A DNA stretch of 64,000 nucleotides from an uncultured Candidatus Saccharibacteria bacterium (GCA_964635995.1 CAZWRA010000001.1:226-64225); one strand, 5' to 3'. Positions 5,395 through 52,885 are shown, numbered from the stretch's first letter. Notes: a model not told the origin generated them from the letters alone. Made by a program: numbers and translations.

Positions 5395-8300
5395 TGAATA
5401 ATAAAATTCTTTTACTACTTGGAATACTTGTTTTATTTGTTGGAGGAATTCTCTCTTTCCTTTTTGTACAAGGAGGTGGAAAGCTTCCTTTTGATGCTGG
5501 TGTTAGTAGTTGTGCAAATCCTGCTGATTTTCCTTGTGGACCTATAACATGTCCTGACGGAACTACTTTTGGCTCAGATCCATGTACTCCAGCTGGTTTT
5601 GGTTCATGTGGAGCTCGAGAAGCACAAGCTTGTGCTGGTCACCAAGGCGGTGGTGGTAATACTTGTAGTGGAGCTGGAAACGCAGGTGCTTGCGGAACTG
5701 TAGGACAAGTTGTAGCTTATTCAGGCGGTACATGTATATGTACAAGAACAACAGGAACACTTTGTGCATGTGTACCTTCAAATGGTTCAGGATGTGTGCA
5801 TGTGAATGATGGATGTAATTCAGTGGGAGAATCATGTAGTAAAGGAGGTCAGTATGGAACCTGCATAAATAACGGTAATGAAACTGTAAATGGAGTTGTT
5901 GGAATTAAATGTTCATGTAAAGTAGCTCCTGTTCAAGGTTCTGTTTGTGGTAATGGTAGTTGTGAACAGGGTGAGACTAATCAAAGTTGCCCAACAGATT
6001 GTAATAGTGAATGTGGAAATGGAACATGTAATGCAGGGGAAAATGTTAACAACTGTCCTGCAGATTGTACTTCAAATGGTGATCAGCAATGTGTGTCTGA
6101 TGGACAGTGCGGCAGCACTCAATATTGTGATTTAAATTTTAGAAAATGTTTATCTAAAAAAGGTGAAAATGGTTCATGCTCAGCTAGCAATCAATGTTTA
6201 AATGGAGACTGTGTAGATGGTCTTTGTGCAAAAACATGTACAAGGAGATCAGATTGTAATGTAGGTCAGTATTGCGAGAGCGGAACATGTAGAGCTGCAA
6301 AAGCTAACGGAGCTAATTGTGGGACCGCAGATGAATGTATTAGTAGAATTTGTGAAGGTGGACTTTGTCTTGCACAGGGAACTGGAACTAGCGGATGTTC
6401 ATTCGATTCAGATTGTACTAATGGACAAATTTGTAGCCCAACAACAAAAACATGTATAACTCCTGGAACTAATAATGATTGTACTAGTAATTCTGAATGT
6501 GCTGCTGGTTATATTTGTGCTTCAAATAGATGTAGACAAGAGGTAGACGATTCAGATCCTAATGTATCTTGCGTAAGTGGACGTTATTATTGTGGACCTG
6601 ATTTTGGTTGTGCTCTAGGTTCAGGAAAAATTTGTAATAATGGAAGTATTTCAGGTTCAACTTGTACTGTAGCTGACGCTTGCGCTTATCAGGTGCAAAG
6701 TGGAAATGTTAGTCCTGGAGGCTCTTGTGTAGGAGTAACTAGACTTAGTGCTGGAGAATCTTCAAGAGGAGGTTTTGTTGGATGTAATGGGACTCAAAAT
6801 TGCTTCTGCCCTCACCAATCAGGAGTAGGCGTAGGAGGAATATATTCAGGAGGTTCAGTAACTTGTTTTGAAGATATTGGTGGAGACTCATGTGGTGCTA
6901 CTGATAATCCAGAACCTCCAATAACTGGGGGTAACCAGCCAATTTGTAGTCAATCATGTTCAACATCTAACCCATGTTCAGATGGAACTAGTTGTATTAA
7001 TGGTGTATGCAGAAATCCTGATTGCCCAAATGATGCGGACTGTAGTTGTAACACTACTCTTCCTATTTGTAATCAAACATGTAACCAAAATAATTGTGCT
7101 GACGGTACAAGCTGTGTTAACGGTACTTGTCAAAATCCAAGTTGTTTAAATGATGCAGATTGTATTTGTTCTATAGACTCAACACCTTATTGTGGAGATT
7201 CAATCTGTCAGGCTGGTGAAACTTGTGAAAGAGCAACTGCTGGTTCAAGTAACTTCAGAGATTGTACAACTAATATATTAGTACCTGAATGTAGAGGAAT
7301 TGCTACTCAACCTCCAACTCCTGCTGGTGTATGTAATTATTGTGGAGATGGAGTTGTAAATGGTCCTGAGGAGTGTGATTATAATTCCCCAGGATCTGAA
7401 AATTGTGATACAAATTGTACCCAAACAATTTCTGCATGTATTTCACTTGAAGAGAATGGACCTGATCCATTACGATCTGGAGAAGGCAATGTTGTAGAAT
7501 ATACATTAACATATAGTCAATCTGGAACTGGTAATCCTTTCCCTTCAATTGTACTTAGAGTAGGTCCAGCTGGTGGAGCTGTTGGTAGAGATGCAAATAA
7601 TACAACTAGTGCATTAGTAAGACCATTCGCAGTTCCTGCAGCAAATGATACCGGAAATACTAAAACATATAAATTCTTATGGGAAGCTGCTGAAACAAAT
7701 GGAAATGCTGTTGCTGATGGAACTTATGATGTAAGAGTTCTATTACAAGGGACAGACAGTACAGCAATCTCTACAGCCGCTTGTCAGGAAACAATTACTG
7801 TTTCTTCAACAACAACACAATCAACAGTATTTACTATTGTAAAATCATCAGCAGAAGTTTGTCTTTCAAATGGAGATGCAAGAATTAACTATACAATTAG
7901 AGTGACAAACACTGGACCTGTTGAAGGTACTATAACAGAAGTTACTGATACACTTGACTCAGATGTTGTTTCTGCAGGAATCATTCCATCAAACATAAAT
8001 CCAACTTATGGGACATATTCTTCAGGAGTTATTACTTGGGTTGGAAGTGCAACAGACAGAACTTATACTTCTGGACAATCAAAAACATTTACTTACGATT
8101 TAACAATTCCTGCTGCATTAGTACCTTCATTTACACAAAGAGGTGTAGATAATGAGGCTACAGTAAGACACGAAAACAATGTTTCTACCCATGAAGTAAA
8201 CACACCAGTATCATGTACAATTAAAGTACCTCAAAAGAAGGTTCCAGAAACTGCTGTATTTAGTGATCCATCTCTTTACGTAATATTTGGCTCACTATTA

Positions 8301-8763: not shown

Positions 8764-9753
8764 TTGTTTATGAAGACTATTTACGTAAAAGATTTAACCC
8801 CAAGACAACTTTTTGAGAATGAAACATTCGCAATTTTTGAAGCTTCAAAGGGTGAGGATAGAAATGGAAAACCATATTACACCTTATTAATTGGAGATAA
8901 GACAGGAAAAGTGTCGGCTAAAATTTGGTCTGATGCTATTGAAAATATTGAGAAGGGAATAATTAAAGAAGGAAGTGTAATAGCAGTTACCGGTAAAGTA
9001 GACGAGTATAAAGGAGCTCCTCAAATTGTGATTTTAGATTGTAAGGCGATTGACGAAACCTCACTTGATGATTTTGTAGAATCAAGCATGTTTGATCCTG
9101 AAGATATGTTTAAAGATTTGAAGGTCGAAGTTGATTCCATAACAAATAAAGATTTAAAGAAAGTAATAAACCAAATTTTAGAAGTTGGTGGAGTAAAAAA
9201 TAATATAAAATACTGGCCAGCAGCTAATACAGTTCATCATGCTTTTAGGTCAGGTTTACTTCAGCATATCCTAGAAATGCTAACAATTGCTAATGGTTTA
9301 GAAAAGTTTTATCCAAATGTTGACTTTGATATTCTTAAAGCAGGTATTATATTGCATGATATTGGAAAAGTTTATGAGTTGGACGGGAAAAATATTTCTG
9401 TTCCTTACACTAGAAGAGGACAATTGCATGGGCACATTTATTTAGGAGCGAGATTATTCGAAGAAATTGCAGAAAAAGAAAAGTTAGATTCTGATATTTT
9501 AGATCATGTATTACACCTAATACTTTCACATCATGGAACTCATGAATATGGTTCTCCTGTTCTTCCAGCAACTCCAGAAGCTATACTCTTAACATATATT
9601 GATAATGTTTCAGCAAAGGCAAGAACTGCAGACTCTGTTATTCAGTCTATGGGAGATGAACAAGAATTTAGTAGAAGAGTATTCTGGTTAGAAAATGCCA
9701 AAATGTGGAACAGACCTAAAAATAATAAAGCTGACCAAATGAAACTAGTATGA
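8764..9753 (+). CDS. YhaM-like 3'-5' exoribonuclease / HD-domain phosphohydrolase with N-terminal OB-fold
   Basis: N-terminal OB-fold-like region followed by HD-domain motifs (HHAFRSGLLQHILEM, ILHDIGK, LSHHGTHEYGSP). Confidence 0.75.
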   Translation: MFMKTIYVKDLTPRQLFENETFAIFEASKGEDRNGKPYYTLLIGDKTGKVSAKIWSDAIENIEKGIIKEGSVIAVTGKVDEYKGAPQIVILDCKAIDETSLDDFVESSMFDPEDMFKDLKVEVDSITNKDLKKVINQILEVGGVKNNIKYWPAANTVHHAFRSGLLQHILEMLTIANGLEKFYPNVDFDILKAGIILHDIGKVYELDGKNISVPYTRRGQLHGHIYLGARLFEEIAEKEKLDSDILDHVLHLILSHHGTHEYGSPVLPATPEAILLTYIDNVSAKARTADSVIQSMGDEQEFSRRVFWLENAKMWNRPKNNKADQMKLV

Positions 9754-10718: not shown

Positions 10719-12086
10719 TTAATCTAGAGTTACTTCTTCTTTCCAATCTGGAATATGACTATTCATAATTCCTATTGAATCAAGTTCTTTATCGAATGCC
10801 TCTGATCTATCTTCTTCTGCATGGATAAGGAATACTTTCTTTAGTTTATCAGTTCTAAATCTTTCAATCCAAGCTTTGTAATCTTCTTTATCTCCATGAG
10901 CTGAGAATCCTTCGTAAGCTACTATATTAGCGTTAACATTTACTTTAGTTTTTCCAATAGTTACTGATTTCGCCCCATCCTTAAGTTGACGTCCAATAGT
11001 TCCTTCAGCTTGATAACCTACAAATAAAACTGAATTTTTAGGATTTGAAAGTCCTTCTGTTAAATGGCTAAGAATTCGTCCTCCATCAGCCATTCCACTT
11101 CCAGCTAAGATAATTTGTCCTTTTTTCTTTGTAAGTCCACTAGATTGTTTACTTCTTTTAACAAATCTTAAACTATCAAAAGTAAATAAACTTTCGTCTT
11201 TACCTGTTAGCGCAGTTAAGTAAATATAAGATACTTTCTGAGCTAAAGGACTATCTAACCATACAGGCTGGTCTTTTGCTAATTTATCTTCTTCCTGCGC
11301 TCTCTTAAAGTCATGAAGAACCTCTTGAGTTCTTTGTACAGAGAAAGTTGGAATGAACACATTTCCTCCCCTAGCCAATGTTTCATTAATAACACTAAGC
11401 ATGTCTTCAACATTATCATTTCTATTTGGGTGAACTTCACTTCCGTATAGTGATTCAATTAAAACATAGTCAGGTTCAGATCTATATTCAGTATCGAAAG
11501 TATCAATAATTGGACTTTGAAGTCTTCCAATGTCTCCAGAGAACATAATTTTTTTATTTCCAGCGCTATCTTCAATGTCAACCTCTATACTTGCAGCACC
11601 TAAAATATGACCAGCTCTTATAAATTTAACTTTAATACCTGGAACAGGCTCAATTTCATCTAGAAAGTGAACACTTTCAAACATGTGAGTAGTTTCTTCA
11701 GCATCATAAGTGTTGTAAACATATTCAACTTTGTTTGTGTATTTACCGAAAGGTTCACCTAATTTAAAGTTATTTTCCTGGATTTTTGCTGAATCCATTA
11801 AAAGAAGTGTAGCTATTTGAATTGTATGATTTGTAGCGTAAATCTTTCCTCTAAAACCATTTTTAAAAAGTTTTGGAAGCATTCCACTATGATCAATATG
11901 AGCATGAGTTAGTAAAACAAAATCAACTTCTGCAGGGTTATATGCGTAAGGTTCAAGATTCCTATGCTCTACATCAGGTCCTTGAAACATACCACAATCT
12001 ACAATAAAGTTACCTTTCTCAGTTTTAACTAGAAAGTTTGATCCGGTAACAGTCTTAGCTGCACCATGAAATCCTATCTGAATCAT
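10719..12086 (-). CDS. beta-CASP family MBL-fold ribonuclease (CPSF73/Ysh1-like, TTHA0252-type)
   Basis: N-terminus IQIGFHGAAKTVTGSNFLV…IVDCGMFQG and HxHxDH motif (LLTHAHIDHSG) characteristic of COG1236 RNA-metabolising metallo-beta-lactamases. Confidence 0.8.
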   Translation of the reverse strand: MIQIGFHGAAKTVTGSNFLVKTEKGNFIVDCGMFQGPDVEHRNLEPYAYNPAEVDFVLLTHAHIDHSGMLPKLFKNGFRGKIYATNHTIQIATLLLMDSAKIQENNFKLGEPFGKYTNKVEYVYNTYDAEETTHMFESVHFLDEIEPVPGIKVKFIRAGHILGAASIEVDIEDSAGNKKIMFSGDIGRLQSPIIDTFDTEYRSEPDYVLIESLYGSEVHPNRNDNVEDMLSVINETLARGGNVFIPTFSVQRTQEVLHDFKRAQEEDKLAKDQPVWLDSPLAQKVSYIYLTALTGKDESLFTFDSLRFVKRSKQSSGLTKKKGQIILAGSGMADGGRILSHLTEGLSNPKNSVLFVGYQAEGTIGRQLKDGAKSVTIGKTKVNVNANIVAYEGFSAHGDKEDYKAWIERFRTDKLKKVFLIHAEEDRSEAFDKELDSIGIMNSHIPDWKEEVTLD

Positions 12087-12243
12087 CAGAATATATATAA
12101 TAAATATTGTTATTTGCGCTTTTGCGCTTATCCATTTACTAAAATTCTCGGAATCGAAAACTTACGTAAATGGACAAATTCCTTAAATTTTACCAAAAAA
12201 ATGAAATTTTATCCCTTTTTTATTCTAGATAGTATAATAATCT

Positions 12244-12564
12244 ATGGTTTCAAAGGAAAATAGACTTACTAAAACAGAGATTTCAAATGCAATGGAAAAT
12301 GGTAAAAGATTTAGAAACGATCTTTTTGATTTAAAACTCCTAAAAAGTGAATCTTTATCTAAAATAGCAGTCATAATTTCAAAAAAAGTCTCTAAAAAAG
12401 CAGTAATTCGAAATAAGATCAGACGACTTATAAAGCAATGGTTTCTTGAACATTCTAATGATTTTGAGCCAAAAATGTACGTTTTTATAGCAAAAAACGA
12501 AAATATTAGAGATTTAAACACAGCTAATTTGCATGAACTAGTAAAACTAACCTTAAACAACTGA
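12244..12564 (+). CDS. rnpA: Ribonuclease P protein component
   Basis: Size (106 aa) and the RNR motif region KKAVIRNKIRRLIKQ. TATAAT-like -10 immediately upstream. No rpmH found upstream. Confidence 0.75.
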   Translation: MVSKENRLTKTEISNAMENGKRFRNDLFDLKLLKSESLSKIAVIISKKVSKKAVIRNKIRRLIKQWFLEHSNDFEPKMYVFIAKNENIRDLNTANLHELVKLTLNN

Positions 12565-26819: not shown

Positions 26820-26918
26820 TCATTATAACATTAAAACCTTTTTTCAACTGAGTATCACTATTACCTATTTATGATAAATTGGATTAATATAGAATTATTA
26901 ATATTTTTGTAAAATATC

Positions 26919-36763: not shown

Positions 36764-36804
36764 AAATCGAGTAATTATAACATTTCTAATGCTCTACAAT
36801 TCTC

Positions 36805-45894: not shown

Positions 45895-46009
45895 AGAAAC
45901 TAAAATAAATAAATATAAATTTCTCTATTTATAAGACTAAAATTACCATTAAAAGTGACAAGTCCTTATTACAAAAATTGTAATAATAAAGTTATAATAT
46001 GAATATCAG

Positions 46010-46083
46010 GGGCCGTAGCTCAATTGGCTAGAGCGCATGGATGGCATTAATGAGGTTGCGGGTTCGATCCCCTCCGGCTCCAT
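46010..46083 (+). tRNA. tRNA-Ala (anticodon GGC) with G3:U70; anticodon stem carries a G-A mismatch
   Basis: GGGGCCG-TA-GCTC-AATTGGCTA-GAGC-G-CATGG-ATGGCAT-TAATG-AGGTT-GCGGG-TTCGATC-CCCTC-CGGCTCC-A. Near-identical architecture to E. coli tRNA-Ala(GGC). 30:40 is G:A. Confidence 0.8.
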
Positions 46084-46097
46084 TTACTAAAAGTTTA

Positions 46098-46436
46098 TGC
46101 AAAAAGAAGTTTTCATAAAAGCAAAGAAAATTATTAATAATCCAGACATTATTATTGATATGTTTACTTCAACATTTGAATGGATAAGCCCAAATGCACT
46201 TGATATATTTAAATATGAGTAAAGTGAGATTATAGGAAAAAAGCGACAACTTTAGTAACTGCAGAATTAGATGAAGCTATAAAGATACTGTTAGATTTAA
46301 TAAAGTCAAAAAAAGGAACTAGAGAGATAGAATTTGTAGATGGCTTAGGTCATAAAATAAGAATTAATGCTGATTTTCAAGTTTTAACTTTTAATAAAGT
46401 TCCCTATCTTATTGCTAAAATCATTTCAATAAAATA
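46098..46436 (+). pseudogene. PAS-domain protein remnant (in-frame TAA plus a frameshift at an A6 run)
   Basis: MQKEVFIKAKKIINNPDIIIDMFTSTFEWISPNALDIFKYE*SEIIGKK then +2 frame ATTLVTAELDEAIKILLDLIKSKKGTREIEFVDGLGHKIRINADFQVLTFNKVPYLIAKI, a PAS-like fold pattern. Confidence 0.5.
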
Positions 46437-46452
46437 AATTTTAAAGAAGACT

Positions 46453-47438
46453 ATGAAAGTTAAGCTTAAAGAATTAGAGTCAATCACACTAAACGCTGTA
46501 AAGAAGTATTGGTATAAGGATAATGAGGCTGAAATAATCAAAAAAGTCTTACTTTATGCTCAGTTAAGAGGTAATAATCAAGGCATAGTAAAGTTGATTG
46601 GAAATGGTATTCCAAGAATTGAAACGGGAAAAGAACCTACTATTGAGAAAGAAACTAAAGTCTCAGCTTTACTAAATATGGAAATTATACTCATGCTATG
46701 GTTGTTATGGATAAATTAGTAGATATAGCAACTAAGAAAGCAATTGAAATAGGAGTAGGAATTGCAGGGAACCACGATACAAGTGAGTCAACTGGAGCAC
46801 TAGGATATTACGTTAATAAAATTGCAGAACAAGGCTTAATCGGAATTGCATTTGCATCTGCACCGTTTCAAACAAACGCCCCTTTTGGAGCAAACGAGGC
46901 AAGATTTTGTACAAATCCACTAGCTTTCGGAATTCCCACTGAGTCTGATCCAATAATTTTAGATATGCCCACTTCAGCTATGGCTTATTATGGATTAATT
47001 GAGGCTAAGACTGCAGGGAAAAAACTTTCTGACAAAGTAGGATTCGATAAAAATGGTAATGAAACTAATGACCCTGCAGAAATAATGTCTGGAGCGCTAA
47101 AAACATTTGGAGGACATAAAGGTTCAGGACTCGCTTTAATTGTCCAAATTTTAGCAGGAGCTTTTGTTAAAGCGGACTCATTTAATAATGATAGTGACAA
47201 CGCTGGTAATCTAGTCGTTCCTATTGATCCAGAGATATTTTTAAGCAAAGACGATTTTAGGAAAAGTGTTACAGAAATAATTAATAAGGTTAAATCCGCA
47301 AGAAGAATAGATAATGTTGAAGAGATTTTTATTCCTGGAGAACGAGGAAATAATTTTCAAAATGAAGTTGTTACTTCAGGCGAAATTGAGATTGAAGATA
47401 ACTTATGGACTGAATTACAAAAAGTTGTTAATTCTTAA
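46453..47438 (+). pseudogene. Ldh_2 family (malate/L-lactate/sulfolactate-type) dehydrogenase split by a frameshift near 46700
   Basis: C-terminal ORF has the Ldh_2 hallmark GGHKGSGLALIVQILAG. N-terminal ORF (46453..46719) supplies the N-terminal domain. ORF2 frame read back gives …NGNYTHAMVVMDKLVD, overlapping ORF1. Confidence 0.7.
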
Positions 47439-48705
47439 CTGAAACTATCTCATCCCAACTAGTTGTATATCTTGGGCTTCGAAGATTACTCTTAGCTCGC
47501 CATGTCTGTTTATCGCCCATTGCTGCAGTTTTAATAGCCCCGCTCCCCCATTCTCTATTAATCTGATCAAAAGCTCCCATTACTATCTTATTCTTTTCTG
47601 TATTATATTCAGGATTGAACATATTAATTTTTTGACTATCTCTAGGTACTAAACCTCCAAGCTGAACCATAGACTTTTTATAAACAACCCCTTTCTTATA
47701 AATCTGCTCTAAACAAAAGTGCGCAGCTTTCGTTAAATCGGGAAGATAATCTGTTGGCGTCTCTAGGGAAATATAATATGAATTATGGTACTCTTTTTCG
47801 CTTGAGGCAAATCTATTAGTTCGAACACTTACCCCAATAAAACTACAGACAGATTTTTGTCTTCTTAATTTTTCAGAAGCTCTTGCGACATAACTTGCAA
47901 CAGATTCTTTAAGTTCGTTCAAACTTGTTACCTTTCTTCCAAAAGATCTTGAACTTATAATTTGTTTTTTTACTTCTTTGTTTTCAACCCCTTCAATACA
48001 ATGAATTCCATTAAGTTCCATTAGAGTTCTCTGTACTGTAACACTCATTTCCTGTCTAACCCAACTTGGATCTAATTTCTTAAAATCAAGCCCAGTATAT
48101 ACTCCGACTCCATTCAACCTTATTGTCAGTCGATATCCTATTCCCCAAATATCTTCCAGAGGAAACTGTTCTAAGACTTTATTAGCTGTTTTATCTGAGT
48201 CAATTACAAAGCATCCCTTATATTTTTCATGTTTTTTCGCATGATCAATAGCTACTTTCGCTAAAGTTTTTGTTGAAGCTATTCCTACAGACACAGGTAA
48301 CCCTGTCCACTTCAGTATTGTATTTCTAATATTTTTACCATATTCATAAAGATCATTTATTTTTACATGCGAAAGATCAATAAACGCTTCATCAATAGAA
48401 TAGATTTGTACGTCAGGAGAGAACTGCTCAAGAATTTTCATCACTCTATTAGACATATCTCCATATAAATGAAAGTTAGCAGAAAATATATGTACATTAT
48501 ATTGATCAATAACATGCTTCCATTCATGAAATGGTGCACCCATAGGAATGCCCAGCTTCTTTACTTCTGAAGATCTAGCAATAATGCACCCATCATTATT
48601 AGATAAAATTGCGATTGGCTTATTAATAAGTATAGGATTAAACACTCTTTCACAAGATGCGAAAAAGTTATTACAATCAATTAATGCGTAGATCTTAGAC
48701 TTCAT
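47428..48705 (-). CDS. umuC: Y-family DNA polymerase (UmuC / DinB-like translesion polymerase)
   Basis: N-terminus KIYALIDCNNFFASCERVFNP, SIDEAFIDLS motif. 425 aa (UmuC-sized). Confidence 0.85.
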   Translation of the reverse strand: MKSKIYALIDCNNFFASCERVFNPILINKPIAILSNNDGCIIARSSEVKKLGIPMGAPFHEWKHVIDQYNVHIFSANFHLYGDMSNRVMKILEQFSPDVQIYSIDEAFIDLSHVKINDLYEYGKNIRNTILKWTGLPVSVGIASTKTLAKVAIDHAKKHEKYKGCFVIDSDKTANKVLEQFPLEDIWGIGYRLTIRLNGVGVYTGLDFKKLDPSWVRQEMSVTVQRTLMELNGIHCIEGVENKEVKKQIISSRSFGRKVTSLNELKESVASYVARASEKLRRQKSVCSFIGVSVRTNRFASSEKEYHNSYYISLETPTDYLPDLTKAAHFCLEQIYKKGVVYKKSMVQLGGLVPRDSQKINMFNPEYNTEKNKIVMGAFDQINREWGSGAIKTAAMGDKQTWRAKSNLRSPRYTTSWDEIVSVKN

Positions 48706-48736
48706 TTGGTAAAATCACTAACTTAATTATAACAAT

Positions 48737-49558
48737 ATGAATGACCATAGATTTAATCATTCTGAAGATGATATACAACCAATATCACAAAGAGAAAGAA
48801 TTGATAACTATGTCTCTAAAGGTCTTGTACCTCCTTCAGATATACGACTACTCTATCAATTAAATCAAGGACAGTATACATATTATGGAGCGGAAGGACA
48901 TAGAAGCGAAGTTATTCAAAGACTGACAAGAGATTTAGTCCATACTATGAACGTAGCTATGCGATGGACAGTAGAAAGAGGGGTGACATGGGAGAATGCA
49001 ATGTCAGCAAGTCTTATTTTTGGTCCAGCATTTACTGATGATTTTAAAGAAATTATTCCTTTAGTTCTTAATGCATACGAAGGTTCTACAGTAAATTTTC
49101 TTACACATGTTCATTTAGTTGCAGGCGGTTATGCAGCACAAGCAGCAGAACTTGCATTAGAGAATTTAAGGTCAGTAGGATTTCGTTATAATATGATTTC
49201 TGATGATTATTATTTAACTATAATTCGGGAATTAGGATTAGTAAGTTCTCAAAATAATAAATTAAATAAGGTATTAAAAGGATTAAGTTTCAACTCAGAT
49301 CCAAATGTATTTGCTGCTGAGGCTTTAATCCGACTTGAATCTAAATACATTATTCAGGATTTCAGAAGAATGGTTACGAAGGAAGGAGGTTACGTTTACT
49401 GTCCTGCCTCAACTGTTATGAGAAATGTTGCTTTATTAACTGTTTATAACATGTACCTATATAAAAAAGATAAATCTATAATAAAGTTAAGTAAAAACCT
49501 TCTTGTTGAAAAAGATATACTCGTACTTAAAGACTTATTTTTAAGCAGTATTACTTGA
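48737..49558 (+). CDS. Hypothetical protein (273 aa), convergent with the small-gene cassette
   Basis: No recognisable motif. Locally higher GC codon usage (Ala/Gly-rich). Confidence 0.4.
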   Translation: MNDHRFNHSEDDIQPISQRERIDNYVSKGLVPPSDIRLLYQLNQGQYTYYGAEGHRSEVIQRLTRDLVHTMNVAMRWTVERGVTWENAMSASLIFGPAFTDDFKEIIPLVLNAYEGSTVNFLTHVHLVAGGYAAQAAELALENLRSVGFRYNMISDDYYLTIIRELGLVSSQNNKLNKVLKGLSFNSDPNVFAAEALIRLESKYIIQDFRRMVTKEGGYVYCPASTVMRNVALLTVYNMYLYKKDKSIIKLSKNLLVEKDILVLKDLFLSSIT

Positions 49559-49786
49559 CTCTTTCAATTCTTCTAAAATTTTCTCGTATTGAGTAATTTT
49601 TTCCCTTACACCTTCAATAGTTTGACTAAAGGAGAAATGATCATTTTCAGTTTCACCATCATCTTCCTTACTGAGTCTACTCTTTGGAATGGTCATCCAT
49701 CCCAATGGAAAGTCTTGATCAAACTCAGAACCTAACTGTTCTAATAATCTCTCATAACCTTGTAGTCTAAGATGTGTAAGTTGCAA
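49541..49786 (-). CDS. Small protein paralogous to the 91-aa ORF at 50323..50598; in-frame with the upstream 167-aa ORF across a TGA
   Basis: MQLTHLRLQGYERLLEQLGSEFDQDFP vs ELTIQGFEKLLELLGEDFDISIP. TTG start. ORF 49796..50299 ends TGA, then three codons ENK, then this ORF in the same frame. Confidence 0.35.
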   Translation of the reverse strand: MQLTHLRLQGYERLLEQLGSEFDQDFPLGWMTIPKSRLSKEDDGETENDHFSFSQTIEGVREKITQYEKILEELKESSNTA

Positions 49787-49795
49787 CTTATTTTC

Positions 49796-50299
49796 TCAAT
49801 CTAAAATCCTAGCCTCTGTTATAAAATTTGGAGGAAGATTTCCATTTCTTTGTTTTTCCAGAACCGTTTCAATTGAGAGAGGAAGATTTACAGAGATATT
49901 TCTAAATTCATTCAAAAGAGCATTATAAGCCGAATATGATTGAGATGCGTGAGAGCCATCCGAAGGAATTGTTGCAAATATATTTCTTAGGCTTTCAGCT
50001 AATCTATCGGTTGAGGTAAGTAAGGCACTTTTCACTTTCCCTTTTTTCTCATCTACAAAAAGAGTAAAATCTTCAGGATTAAATAAATTTAGTTCCGGAT
50101 TAGTAGTTCTAAAAAAAAGTTTAGTATGTGTTGAAGATAAATAAACTGTGCCATCGTCCAGCATAGTTCCTACTTTTCCTAATACTCCCTGTTCATTATC
50201 ATATGTATAAACCCTGTCTCGAGGTATTTCTATAGTTGCATCTCCAAATCTAACTGTTAAATCATCTGTTGATAATCGTTTGTCTACTAAATCCGTCAT
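49796..50299 (-). CDS. Hypothetical protein (167 aa)
   Basis: No motif. C-terminal …NEFRNISVNLP resembles the N-terminal region of the 91-aa paralogue (…SAFRNDLEYY). Confidence 0.4.
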   Translation of the reverse strand: MTDLVDKRLSTDDLTVRFGDATIEIPRDRVYTYDNEQGVLGKVGTMLDDGTVYLSSTHTKLFFRTTNPELNLFNPEDFTLFVDEKKGKVKSALLTSTDRLAESLRNIFATIPSDGSHASQSYSAYNALLNEFRNISVNLPLSIETVLEKQRNGNLPPNFITEARILD

Positions 50300-50322
50300 A
50301 TTGAAATTATAAAAAATAATTT

Positions 50323-50598
50323 TTATGTCTTTGTAAATTGATTAATTAAATCTTCCGATTCTGTAAGCATATTTTTGTATATTTCAAAATCCTCTCTTAA
50401 ATTTCTAACTAAATCTTTAAATGGTTCAGCTTTTAATGTTTCAGGTATACTGATGTCAAAATCTTCTCCAAGTAATTCTAAAAGTTTTTCAAATCCTTGT
50501 ATTGTTAGTTCATAATATTCTAGATCGTTACGAAAAGCACTAATTGCTTCAGGAGTAATCTTTGCAGGTAGAGTGAACGTTGGGTCTGCTTCTTTCAT
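50323..50598 (-). CDS. Small hypothetical protein (91 aa), paralogue of 49541..49786
   Basis: Shared motif L-x2-(I/L)QG(F/Y)E(K/R)LLE-LG-x-(D/E)FD. Confidence 0.4.
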   Translation of the reverse strand: MKEADPTFTLPAKITPEAISAFRNDLEYYELTIQGFEKLLELLGEDFDISIPETLKAEPFKDLVRNLREDFEIYKNMLTESEDLINQFTKT

Positions 50599-50662
50599 TT
50601 TTAGTCTTCCATGATATGCGTGTAATAGTCCGCTATAAATAGGACCATAAAAGTTTCTAAGT

Positions 50663-51040
50663 TCAGCAACTATATTTTATATATGTGATAACCAGGCATA
50701 TCAATTCTAATTCTTCGTTAAACAAAGGGCTGATCTGTTCTGCGAGTATTTCAACGTCTACTGATAATGCTAAGGATTTTTCACCGGATGGTGTTATCAT
50801 AAGAATGAAATCACTACTAGTAAATGATTTTGCTAATCTTTCTATTGAACTTGTATCCATATCTTGTGATCCTAACATTGACATAGTATGAGAATTAGCA
50901 AGATTTATAAGCGTCCCACCTTTTGCTATAGTTCTTTCCCTAAAAATCTGGAATTGATCTGTAGTAGGATTAGTAACTTGATAAATATCTTCTTGATGAA
51001 TTTGATCATATATTCCTTCGATACCTGTTTCATTTACCAT
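50663..51040 (-). CDS. Hypothetical protein (125 aa), weak resemblance to Roadblock/LC7-type domains
   Basis: Size and alternating hydrophobic pattern only. Low confidence. Confidence 0.35.
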   Translation of the reverse strand: MVNETGIEGIYDQIHQEDIYQVTNPTTDQFQIFRERTIAKGGTLINLANSHTMSMLGSQDMDTSSIERLAKSFTSSDFILMITPSGEKSLALSVDVEILAEQISPLFNEELELICLVITYIKYSC

Positions 51041-51075
51041 TTTAGAATATTATAATTTAACTAATTATATAATTT

Positions 51076-51567
51076 TTATATTAAAGTTTTAATAACATGG
51101 GAAACAACTCCGAAAATCTGGAATTCATCAGTTGTATCGATCTTTATCGGCCTGTAGTTTTCATTTTCTGGAATTAGAAATAACTCTCCATTAACTTTTT
51201 TAACCCTTTTAACTGTAAATTCTCCATCTATTGCAGCTATTACAATTTTTCCATCTGTAATTTCTAAAGATCTATCTATAACTAATAAATCTCCTGGATG
51301 AATGCCAATATTCTTCATTGAGTCACCTTCTGCTCTTACAAAGAATGTAGCTGTTGGATGTTTTATTAAATAGTCGTTTAAATCAAGTTTTCTCTCGATA
51401 AAATCATCTGCGGGGCTTGGGAAACCTGCTTTTACTGAGGTTGCATATAAAGGTATCTTTATAGATTTTGATTGAGTTGGTATAAGTATATTTAGGCTCA
51501 TAAGTCTATGATAGCAGATATCATTGCTTTTCTTCTTCTCCTTTTCTAAAGTAGTAACCAAGCACAA
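51076..51567 (-). CDS. umuD: UmuD-like S24 peptidase (LexA-type self-cleaving domain without DNA-binding HTH)
   Basis: …IPLYATSVKAGFPSPADDFIERKLDLNDYLIKHPTATFFVRAEGDSMKNIGIHPGDLLVIDRSLEITDGKIVIAAIDGEFTVKRV… matches UmuD (cleavage-site region, Ser in GDSM, Lys in TVKR). Confidence 0.8.
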   Translation of the reverse strand: MCLVTTLEKEKKKSNDICYHRLMSLNILIPTQSKSIKIPLYATSVKAGFPSPADDFIERKLDLNDYLIKHPTATFFVRAEGDSMKNIGIHPGDLLVIDRSLEITDGKIVIAAIDGEFTVKRVKKVNGELFLIPENENYRPIKIDTTDEFQIFGVVSHVIKTLI

Positions 51568-51934
51568 ACCCTAACGTTCCTAGAAATACCCCTGAGATTA
51601 AAGGAATTACAACTTCAAGATTATCGATAATGCTCACTTTTCTAGCAAGACCATCTAAAACAACGATACCCATTACAGTAAAGAAAACTAGAAAAGTTAA
51701 AGTCGTATAGATTATTGCTAATCGACTTTTTGTATCTTCTCTTTTAATGAAAATAGGATCCTGATTTTTTGCAGCTATTGTCTCAGAAACTTGAGGAGCT
51801 CCAGCAGCATCTACATAACCTTCTTCATATCCATCACTAAACTCTTCACCTAAAAGTTCCTGATCAAATACCTCATAATCATCAGCTGAACTTGAAGTTT
51901 CTCCTTTTTCGTTTGAAGCTTTAACGTTGCTCAT
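51521..51934 (-). CDS. Membrane protein with acidic N-terminal region, unknown
   Basis: Acidic N-terminal region, two TM helices. Overlaps the umuD-like start by 47 nt. Confidence 0.35.
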   Translation of the reverse strand: MSNVKASNEKGETSSSADDYEVFDQELLGEEFSDGYEEGYVDAAGAPQVSETIAAKNQDPIFIKREDTKSRLAIIYTTLTFLVFFTVMGIVVLDGLARKVSIIDNLEVVIPLISGVFLGTLGFVLGYYFRKGEEEKQ

Positions 51935-52190
51935 TTTTAGGATCTAGATTGAATCTTGGCTTGTAACCTCGAAAGCCGTTAATGATTAACTCCCACTCTG
52001 ACTTAGGATATCTTAAAACAACTTGGTGGCCCAGGGACTTTGCAAGCATGAATACCGCAGCTTTAATAATATCTGAGGGATACTCATTTGTTTTCCTTGC
52101 TAGATCTTTAAGAAGCTCAGAAGTTTCTTCATCTACCGGAGCAACTTTTAAATTCTTCTCTTTAAGCTTTTTTGTAAGCTTTTCAGTCAT
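51921..52190 (-). CDS. Small hypothetical protein (89 aa)
   Basis: ORF only. First gene of the minus-strand run ending at umuC. Confidence 0.3.
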   Translation of the reverse strand: MTEKLTKKLKEKNLKVAPVDEETSELLKDLARKTNEYPSDIIKAAVFMLAKSLGHQVVLRYPKSEWELIINGFRGYKPRFNLDPKNEQR

Positions 52191-52255
52191 CGTTTACAGG
52201 GAATAAGAAATTATTTATACTTACCTTATATTATCATATTATTTTCATTCTCTGG

Positions 52256-52885
52256 ATGAATATAAAAAGATCAGCTTTAGGAGCAATGTACGGAATCTTT
52301 TTCTCAACTGTTCTTGGGTTAATACTTTTAGCAGTTACTATTAACTTCCTTATTCAATCTAGAAATAAAACTGATGATGTTAGTGTTAATTCAATACAGA
52401 CAGTAGATGCTTCAAACACTTTTATTGGAAATCCCGATGTAAAAATACTTCCTGTGTCTGATTCTAAAAGTATTCAAATTGATAATGAAATAGTTAATTT
52501 AGGTCAGTCCTACGAGGTAATGACAAGGTATGGGAATTCAAGAGGAACATTATTTGATTGTTCTGAAGAAAGTTGCGAGATTTATGAAATACTAAGTGAA
52601 TCAGGAAAATACTTTTATATTTCAGCTTTATCAGAAATAAAGCTTTCTGATGCTACAATTGGAAGTGAGGATAGTGTTACATTAGGTAACTACTCCTTAA
52701 AATCTGAAGAACTAAATTTATTTAATTCAGATGTAATAGTTTACAGGCAGGTTTATGGTTGTTTGAGTGAAAAGATTTGTGTTCATTCTGGTTCTTTATA
52801 TATTGACGACCAAAATTTAAATTCAGGAGAATTAAATGAATTTCAGCAATTTTTAAATACATTACAATTTTCAAATGGAGAATAG
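52256..52885 (+). CDS. Membrane-anchored hypothetical protein
   Basis: N-terminal TM (GIFFSTVLGLILLAVTINFLI). Confidence 0.4.
   Translation: MNIKRSALGAMYGIFFSTVLGLILLAVTINFLIQSRNKTDDVSVNSIQTVDASNTFIGNPDVKILPVSDSKSIQIDNEIVNLGQSYEVMTRYGNSRGTLFDCSEESCEIYEILSESGKYFYISALSEIKLSDATIGSEDSVTLGNYSLKSEELNLFNSDVIVYRQVYGCLSEKICVHSGSLYIDDQNLNSGELNEFQQFLNTLQFSNGE

Follow-up and report, generated by a model that had tools for sequence, protein, structure and literature searches.

Homologues of umuD and umuC are separated by 2,370 bp, counted from the umuD stop, in a 64,000-nucleotide stretch of DNA from an uncultured Candidatus Saccharibacteria bacterium (GCA_964635995.1 CAZWRA010000001.1:226-64225; the whole stretch is called the window here). 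Our results suggest, with moderate confidence, that orphan genes specific to the lineage accumulated in this gap step by step, the umuD-umuC junction being a permissive site within a conserved Pol V-type locus, and that the small open reading frames (ORFs) within it are passengers. The gap contains five ORFs, four small ones on the minus strand (125, 91, 167 and 81 amino acids, aa) and, convergent to them on the opposite strand, one of 273 aa, so the canonical umuDC arrangement, in which umuD is adjacent to or overlaps umuC, is not found at this locus. A preliminary description of the window had reported umuD-like and umuC-like genes split by a 2.4-kb stretch, with small ORFs and a convergent gene ahead of umuC, and all of these ORFs are indeed present, in a gap of 2.37 kb. 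The window has 31% GC and reads cleanly with the standard bacterial code. On the minus strand the gene order is p89, p137, umuD, p125, p91, p167, p81 and umuC, with p273 on the plus strand between the last two; p125 starts 35 bp past the umuD stop on the same strand, and the 3' ends of p81 and p273 overlap by 18 nt. The features of the locus are the following:

51921..52190, minus strand: p89, encoding a small protein of basic pI (9.5), at the head of the conserved p89-p137-umuD unit
51521..51934, minus strand: p137, with acidic N-terminus and hydrophobic C-terminal half, upstream of umuD in three loci
51076..51501, minus strand: umuD homologue, 141 aa (Pfam S24, NCBIfam UmuD, alignment to E. 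coli UmuD)
50663..51040, minus strand: p125, orphan, N-terminal part of module A (ORF, codon usage, weak collinearity with p167)
50675..50678, minus strand: A4 run; with one A removed, p125 and p91 are fused into a 238-aa ORF
50323..50598, minus strand: p91, acidic C-terminal part of module A with the QGFEKLLELLGEDFD motif; frame open upstream to 50676
49796..50299, minus strand: p167, N-terminal part of module B, ending in a TGA in frame with p81
49541..49786, minus strand: p81, acidic C-terminal part of module B, with a TTG start 9 nt past the p167 stop
48737..49558, plus strand: p273, orphan gene, predicted all-helical, common only to the window and its nearest relative, L002
48726..48734, minus strand: TGTTATAAT, predicted extended -10 element, in the 31-bp divergent spacer between p273 and umuC
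47428..48705, minus strand: umuC homologue, 425 aa, Y-family polymerase (Pfam IMS, IMS_C and DUF4113; NCBIfam UmuC)

As had been proposed, the genes on either side of the gap are genuine homologues of umuD and umuC. The S24 protein scored 165.6 bits on the NCBIfam Pol V UmuD model NF007621 (cutoff 110) against 90.6 bits for LexA, matched Pfam PF00717 with an E-value of 2.4e-33, and at 141 aa is devoid of a DNA-binding N-terminal domain. Among proteins of solved structure, E. coli UmuD is the best relative (E 1.8e-37; structures 8gmt and 1umu aligned), and the alignment shows the self-cleavage site A25-G26 and the S61/K98 dyad in place. The gene itself stood as described, but its start did not: rather than the TTG at 51567, it most likely begins at the ATG at 51501, in agreement with the L002 orthologue and with the independent gene calls for L001, the sole further assembly of the organism (100% identical). 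The polymerase contains the IMS domain (PF00817, E 9.5e-39), the little finger IMS_C (PF11799, E 1.6e-19) and DUF4113 (PF13438, E 2.1e-17), and it scored 414.6 bits on the NCBIfam UmuC model against 161 or less on every DinB model. The possibility of a dinB gene with an unrelated S24 neighbour is therefore excluded. The UmuC score is a narrow miss of the curated cutoff of 431 for NF002955, which is consistent with a divergent phylum, and the catalytic carboxylates D10 and D105/E106 match the corresponding Dpo4 residues in the alignment. The locus thus resembles E. coli umuDC in that both subunits have their defining residues and UmuC carries the little finger and DUF4113. It differs from E. 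coli, where the two genes are adjacent or overlapping, in the 2.37 kb and five genes that intervene, in the apparent own promoter of umuC, in the lineage-specific p89 and p137 ahead of umuD, and in that no CTGT-N8-ACAG or GAAC-N4-GTTC box was found.

Comparison with two relatives suggests that the gap was not filled at once. L002, a Candidatus Saccharibacteria genome assembled from a metagenome and found in a one-genome-per-species scan, is the nearest relative (UmuC 81% and UmuD 79% identical to those of the window). It has homologues of p89 (91 aa) and p137 (142 aa), each 68% identical, and keeps the neighbours beyond p89 as well, with homologues of p209, p183, the DHH protein and the YjeF-like protein. 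Between its umuD and umuC lie no more than a spacer of 137 bp and, on the opposite strand, a gene of 268 aa; none of the four small ORFs is present. The 268-aa protein and p273 are 44% identical (E 4e-70), against 68-81% for the flanking genes, and the two genes occupy the same position, again 31 bp from umuC in L002. The second relative, L020, is a metagenome contig that represents a distant Saccharibacteria-like syntenic lineage (UmuC 51%, UmuD 54%, p137 56% and DHH protein 45% identical to the window); its order is p84-p149-umuD-229 bp-umuC, without a homologue of p273 or of the small ORFs. The backbone from p89 to umuC is syntenic in the three genomes, and the series runs from none of the intervening genes in L020, through the 268-aa homologue only in L002, to all five in the window. 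The 2.4 kb had been presented as one cassette; it has at least two layers, the 273-aa gene common to the window and L002 and the small ORFs confined to the window. A search for the same four-gene cassette beside Y-family polymerases in other genomes had been proposed; the four small ORFs are found neither in L002 and L020 nor in the 87 other umuDC loci examined.

At the place of the four small ORFs, L002 has a 32-aa acidic ORF, MMDVMADDNYDYDNSPEENDHERLRDLLEGED (9068-9166), in the spacer between umuD and the 268-aa gene, overlapping the 3' end of the latter; its likeness to p81 (ENDH; ERL..LLE) is not significant. The 137-bp spacer was also considered as a remnant of the cassette, and this is not relied on, all DNA matches to the window cassette having E-values above 0.4.

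The small ORFs form two related modules, A (p125 and p91) and B (p167 and p81). The shared motif and paralogy of p91 and p81, noticed in the preliminary description, are supported by BLASTP (E 6e-8). Within a 29-aa core, 10 of the 14 identical residues use different codons, and identity by codon position is 0.52, 0.69 and 0.34, the third position being at background level; conservation is therefore at the protein level, and the pattern appears to be the signature of an old relationship. When p91 was aligned to the read-through of p167, TGA and p81, the similarity crossed the stop codon (E 2e-8). The p91 frame is itself open for 26 codons upstream of its ATG, overlapping the end of p125, and deletion of one A of the A4 run at 50675-50678 yields a single 238-aa ORF joining both. 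This fused module A is collinear with 167-TGA-81 over its full length at 26% identity, in line with the earlier suggestion that 167+81 is a second copy of a 125+91-type module. The N-terminal parts taken alone gave an alignment z of about 2.8, a score matched by 2 of 300 shuffles.

The preliminary description held that the small ORFs would be spurious if related genomes did not conserve them. They are indeed not conserved, but spuriousness does not follow, because internal paralogy, codon usage and ORF-length statistics all argue against it. None of 500 shuffles of the 1.5-kb region produced an ORF of at least 167 aa, and four ORFs of at least 81 aa appeared in 0.2%. By log-likelihood, p125, p91, p167, p81 and p273 all resemble the host in their codon usage and score best in the frame annotated, and the four small proteins are all acidic, with pI between 4.3 and 5.0. 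These properties indicate that the four small ORFs code for protein now or did so until very recently. Each module has a single break, a frameshift at the A4 run in A and an in-frame TGA in B, and both interruptions fall within the linker between the N- and C-terminal domains. No further stops occur in about 460 module codons at 31% GC, when open frames in shuffled sequence rarely exceed 75-130 codons. Genetic code 25, in which TGA would read as glycine and fuse 167 with 81, was rejected: TGA ends 9 of 47 confident ORFs, among them p137, whose C-terminus aligns with its orthologues, so that TGA is an ordinary stop codon, and the long ORFs of the window are intact under table 11.

A 21/24-nt direct repeat connects the 3' end of umuD (51113-51136, TTDEFQIF) with codons 26-33 of p125 (50943-50966, TTDQFQIF). 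It is the only one of such quality in the 5.1-kb region, and 0 of 30 shuffles match it; 'TTD' is limited to the UmuD of the window, with SED in L002 and PDD in L020. The repeat may be a trace of an insertion event, or chance.

The five intervening proteins are orphans. None of p125, p91, p167, p81 and p273 matched Pfam, PHROG or NCBIfam, and PADLOC gave no match except one at E 0.072; the earlier statement that the four small ORFs have no recognisable domain is thus confirmed. Two word-index searches of 5.8e9 protein clusters with p273, one from the single sequence and one from the alignment, found a family of two members, p273 itself and the L002 copy, and an exhaustive HMMER profile search of 1.84e9 representatives, made for p273 only, returned the same two proteins. 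The fused 167+81 query found only itself in the 5.8e9 clusters. Nothing was found in a metagenome scan with p273 and nothing convincing in IMG/VR viral scans with p273, p167, p91 and the module alignment, and tblastn against phage and plasmid collections gave no match. One viral match, L019, was judged to be chance: the matching peptide, REDFEIYK, is N-terminal in a large ORF, taken to be a portal protein, on a more GC-rich phage contig. Sequence searches of the PDB gave only sub-threshold coiled-coil matches, such as a SAP54-like effector at E 0.013. Structure prediction by AlphaFold2 was uninformative, with a mean predicted local distance difference test (pLDDT) score of 44 for p273, modelled as all-helical, and of 49 for fused 167+81, modelled at this low confidence with a beta-rich N-terminal part and helical C-terminal segments. 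With these low-confidence models, Foldseek against the PDB found none at E of 0.001 or less, and TM-scores did not exceed 0.22.

Taken together, these data are best explained by a model in which p89-p137-umuD...umuC is a chromosomal Pol V-type locus conserved in its Candidatus Saccharibacteria lineage, with genes added to the umuD-umuC junction in turn. Before the window and L002 diverged, a helical-protein gene of about 270 aa would have entered on the opposite strand, and this insertion would have uncoupled umuC from umuD; an extended -10 promoter (TGnTATAAT) within the 31-bp divergent spacer would now drive umuC by itself. An orphan gene of about 240-250 aa would then have been added downstream of umuD, in the lineage of the window alone, and duplicated in tandem. 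Its product would combine a beta-rich N-terminal domain with a C-terminal domain that is acidic and helical and bears the motif QG[FY]E[KR]LLE.LG..FD. Both copies would later have been broken in the inter-domain linker, by the A4 frameshift (125+91) and by the in-frame TGA (167+81). The direction of events would be gain rather than loss, and the split halves might still be functional. In this model the small ORFs are probably passengers, expressed by read-through from umuD, and probably neither Pol V subunits nor dedicated regulators.

Promoter-like elements agree with the proposed uncoupling. The 31-bp divergent spacer upstream of umuC holds TGTTATAAT, L002 has TGATATAAT at the same position, and an identical copy of the 9-mer lies 10 nt upstream of tRNA-Ser (36774-36782); umuC therefore very probably has its own, predicted, extended -10 promoter. 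The 9-mer occurs also upstream of a 1016-aa gene (26822-26830), and probably represents a type of promoter that this genome uses commonly. No terminator-like site was detected in 47300-52400, including the convergent junction, and no hairpin between umuD and the small ORFs was unusually stable, both compared with shuffled controls, so read-through from umuD into the small ORFs is plausible. Two further candidates were discarded: a p273 promoter inside umuC (TTCACA-17-TACAAT), which by reading of the sequences is not conserved in L002, and an operator shared by p89 and umuC (ATAAT-N1-2-AAG-N-TAG), a pattern that also occurs inside unrelated genes and is not specific.

Several points weigh against accretion with passengers. 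The presence/absence series is made of three genomes only, and loss of the small ORFs in L002 is possible. Every gene of the locus, umuC and umuD included, is a singleton at 90% identity clustering, and with a lineage so thinly sampled the absence of homologues is weak evidence. Of the orphan genes, only p273 and 167+81 were queried against the large protein collection and only p273 against the metagenome collection; paralogues of about 30% identity would in any case miss significance at such database size. A same-strand position after umuD with no terminator would subject the ORFs to the control of umuD, as would be expected of a functional link too, and breaks confined to the linker, with no other stops, fit functional two-gene modules as well as they fit very recent decay. 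Finally, the frameshift of module A could be an assembly error, and the sole other assembly of the organism, identical throughout, may share the same reads.

The small ORFs could instead be functionless, decaying pseudogene fragments of a duplicated orphan gene, which we regard as unlikely. The single-base frameshift that parts p125 from p91, with the p91 frame still open upstream, the in-frame TGA between p167 and p81 that homology to p91 spans, the TTG as the only start of p81 and a frameshift in a neighbouring Ldh_2 gene are all what decay would leave behind; the codon-usage signal is intact, however, the rest of the modules is free of stops, and, with the two breaks placed in the linker, folding and activity of each half are still conceivable. 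A functional, damage-inducible accessory module co-regulated with Pol V, comprising the four small ORFs and perhaps p273, seems to us quite unlikely. Its products would be acidic proteins that modulate UmuD', UmuC or RecA, or stress cargo of another kind, and such a module would account for ORFs that follow the umuD stop closely on the same strand with no terminator-like site, for paralogues kept at the protein level with host-like codons and uniformly acidic products, and for the fact that other lineages also place cargo in the umuD-umuC slot, mostly on the same strand. Yet the ORFs are missing from L002 and L020, which keep p89-p137-umuD-umuC, and from all other sampled umuDC loci, the cargo found elsewhere is unrelated and heterogeneous, both modules are interrupted, and no domain ties the small ORFs to DNA repair. 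Support for a Pol V or SOS accessory role is one of position only.

The preliminary description had gone further and suggested SOS-associated cargo in the form of translesion synthesis accessory factors, a toxin-antitoxin or an anti-phage module, possibly carried on a mobile element near a tRNA-Ala. We consider it highly improbable that the genes serve as a toxin-antitoxin, anti-phage or immunity module or belong to a mobile island beside tRNA-Ala. Small acidic proteins in pairs would suit such a module, as would the fast evolution of p273 (44% identity, against about 80% for its neighbours), and the tRNA-Ala does lie near the region, 1.3 kb beyond umuC, with an interval between the two that differs from that of L002. 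Against this, the PADLOC, PHROG, Pfam and NCBIfam searches were without matches for the cargo, which has no relatives in phage, plasmid or viral collections apart from the chance pattern in L019, and the four small ORFs are absent from L002, L020 and the 87 other loci. Pfam scans of neighbouring ORFs revealed no integrase or recombinase, flanking repeats were at chance level only, GC stays at 0.28-0.36 throughout with no compositional shift, codon usage is that of the host, and the flanks are syntenic in the three genomes.

Stepwise accretion in a permissive junction receives further context from umuDC loci elsewhere. Among 88 loci with both genes that were retrieved with UmuC, L002 included, the spacing between umuD and umuC was 120 bp or less in 68, 121-350 bp in 7 and above 350 bp in 13 (12 without L002). 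Cargo-bearing junctions, with 0.36-2.0 kb of unrelated genes between umuD and umuC, thus account for 12 of the 87 other loci (about 14%, roughly one in seven), in diverse bacteria: L011, L024, L028, L037/L040, L041, L047, L048/L073, L050/L094 and L055. The split umuDC operon is recurrent and the window locus is not unique. As in the window, unrelated genes occupy the junction, one to four in these loci and usually on the same strand, and the cargo of L048 and L073 is on the opposite strand like p273. Unlike in the window, the cargo belongs to entirely different families and none resembles p273 or the small ORFs. It includes an SDR, a four-gene set (DUF7677, an unknown protein, a MepB-like protein and a glyoxalase), a DUF559/REase-like protein, an RHS-repeat protein, a HEAT-repeat protein, DUF1801 and a lipoprotein-like protein, and, on the opposite strand, an MFS fragment and a DUF2268-like protease. 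The literature searched gave no description of recurrent cargo between umuD and umuC. It is conceivable that the junction is a general cargo slot in several phyla, where genes ride on damage-inducible transcription, and that in this lineage it captured a new family of two-domain acidic proteins, those of the modules, and the fast-evolving helical p273, which would act as lineage-specific Pol V or RecA modulators or as stress effectors, an extension that we consider improbable.

A partial parallel is offered by the umuDAb/ddrR (and EppR) system of Acinetobacter, in which small lineage-specific proteins encoded beside error-prone polymerase genes are reported to act in a LexA-independent damage response (PMC11332147, PMC12242105). 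The two systems are alike in this association of lineage-specific small proteins with polymerase genes. They are unlike in that the UmuD of the window is of ordinary length (141 aa) and there is no sequence similarity, and any regulator role of p89 or the small ORFs is hypothetical.

The locus shows that a reduced-genome lineage, the Saccharibacteria of the candidate phyla radiation, keeps an apparently intact Pol V-type translesion system, accompanied here by two conserved lineage-specific partner genes, and that umuC is not necessarily lost when it becomes uncoupled from umuD. The five orphan genes themselves offer no testable function at present and make the locus a curiosity; the recurrent junction cargo may outweigh them in usefulness, as it could be mined for genes that gain from damage-inducible expression.

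The two genes ahead of umuD and the surroundings of the locus add two further features:

52188..52238, minus strand: conserved non-coding block upstream of p89 (three-genome alignment)
46009-46082: tRNA-Ala (Rfam)

A small basic protein and a p137-type protein precede umuD in all three loci (window 51521-52190; L002 7904-8591; L020 8364-9069). p89 is 68% identical to its L002 homologue and 30% to that of L020, and it has no Pfam family. A role for it as a ribbon-helix-helix regulator was not retained, the hint being a weak one from a single family member (PSK_trans_fac, E 0.12), and regulator remains a guess for its function. In p137, the C-terminal IPLISGVFLGTLGFVLGYYF is invariant in the window, L002 and L020, despite a UmuC that is only 51% identical in L020, and the hydrophobic half was read by eye as two putative membrane-spanning segments. 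Judged from their conservation, p89 and p137 resemble partners or regulators of the Pol V locus that are particular to the lineage.

The block at 52188-52238 (TATGATAWTAT...TAGTATARATAAT...TGTAAAC.ATG) has long invariant runs across the three genomes and is probably a promoter, possibly with an operator. The preliminary description had proposed to look for a LexA operator upstream of 52190; no canonical box was found, a consensus that may not be that of this host. The window has no GAAC-N4-GTTC box, which is a known LexA type from which the Saccharibacteria motif may differ. Sites like CTGT-N8-ACAG occur at chance level, with one at 52184-52199 that is not kept in L002 or L020, and here too the host motif may differ. 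The conserved block contains no conserved palindrome of known LexA type.

Rfam returned only the tRNA-Ala. The interval between it and umuC, a second variable spot beside the locus, spans 46083-47427 in the window and 11275-13917 in L002. L002 has there a 459-aa glyoxalase/DLH-like gene and two PAS-like small genes. In the window, a malate/L-lactate dehydrogenase (Ldh_2) gene at 46453-47438 is frameshifted into ORFs of 88 and 246 aa and is either a pseudogene or an assembly error; its relevance here is that the break in module A, too, is a frameshift of a single base. A split gene is seen in L002 too, where the DHH-family homologue of window p351 (5633-6681) is parted by a frameshift into ORFs of 216 and 148 aa. 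The L020 locus adjoins another DNA-repair gene, an 8-oxoguanine DNA glycosylase (OGG_N and HhH-GPD; 11350-12264) that directly follows umuC.

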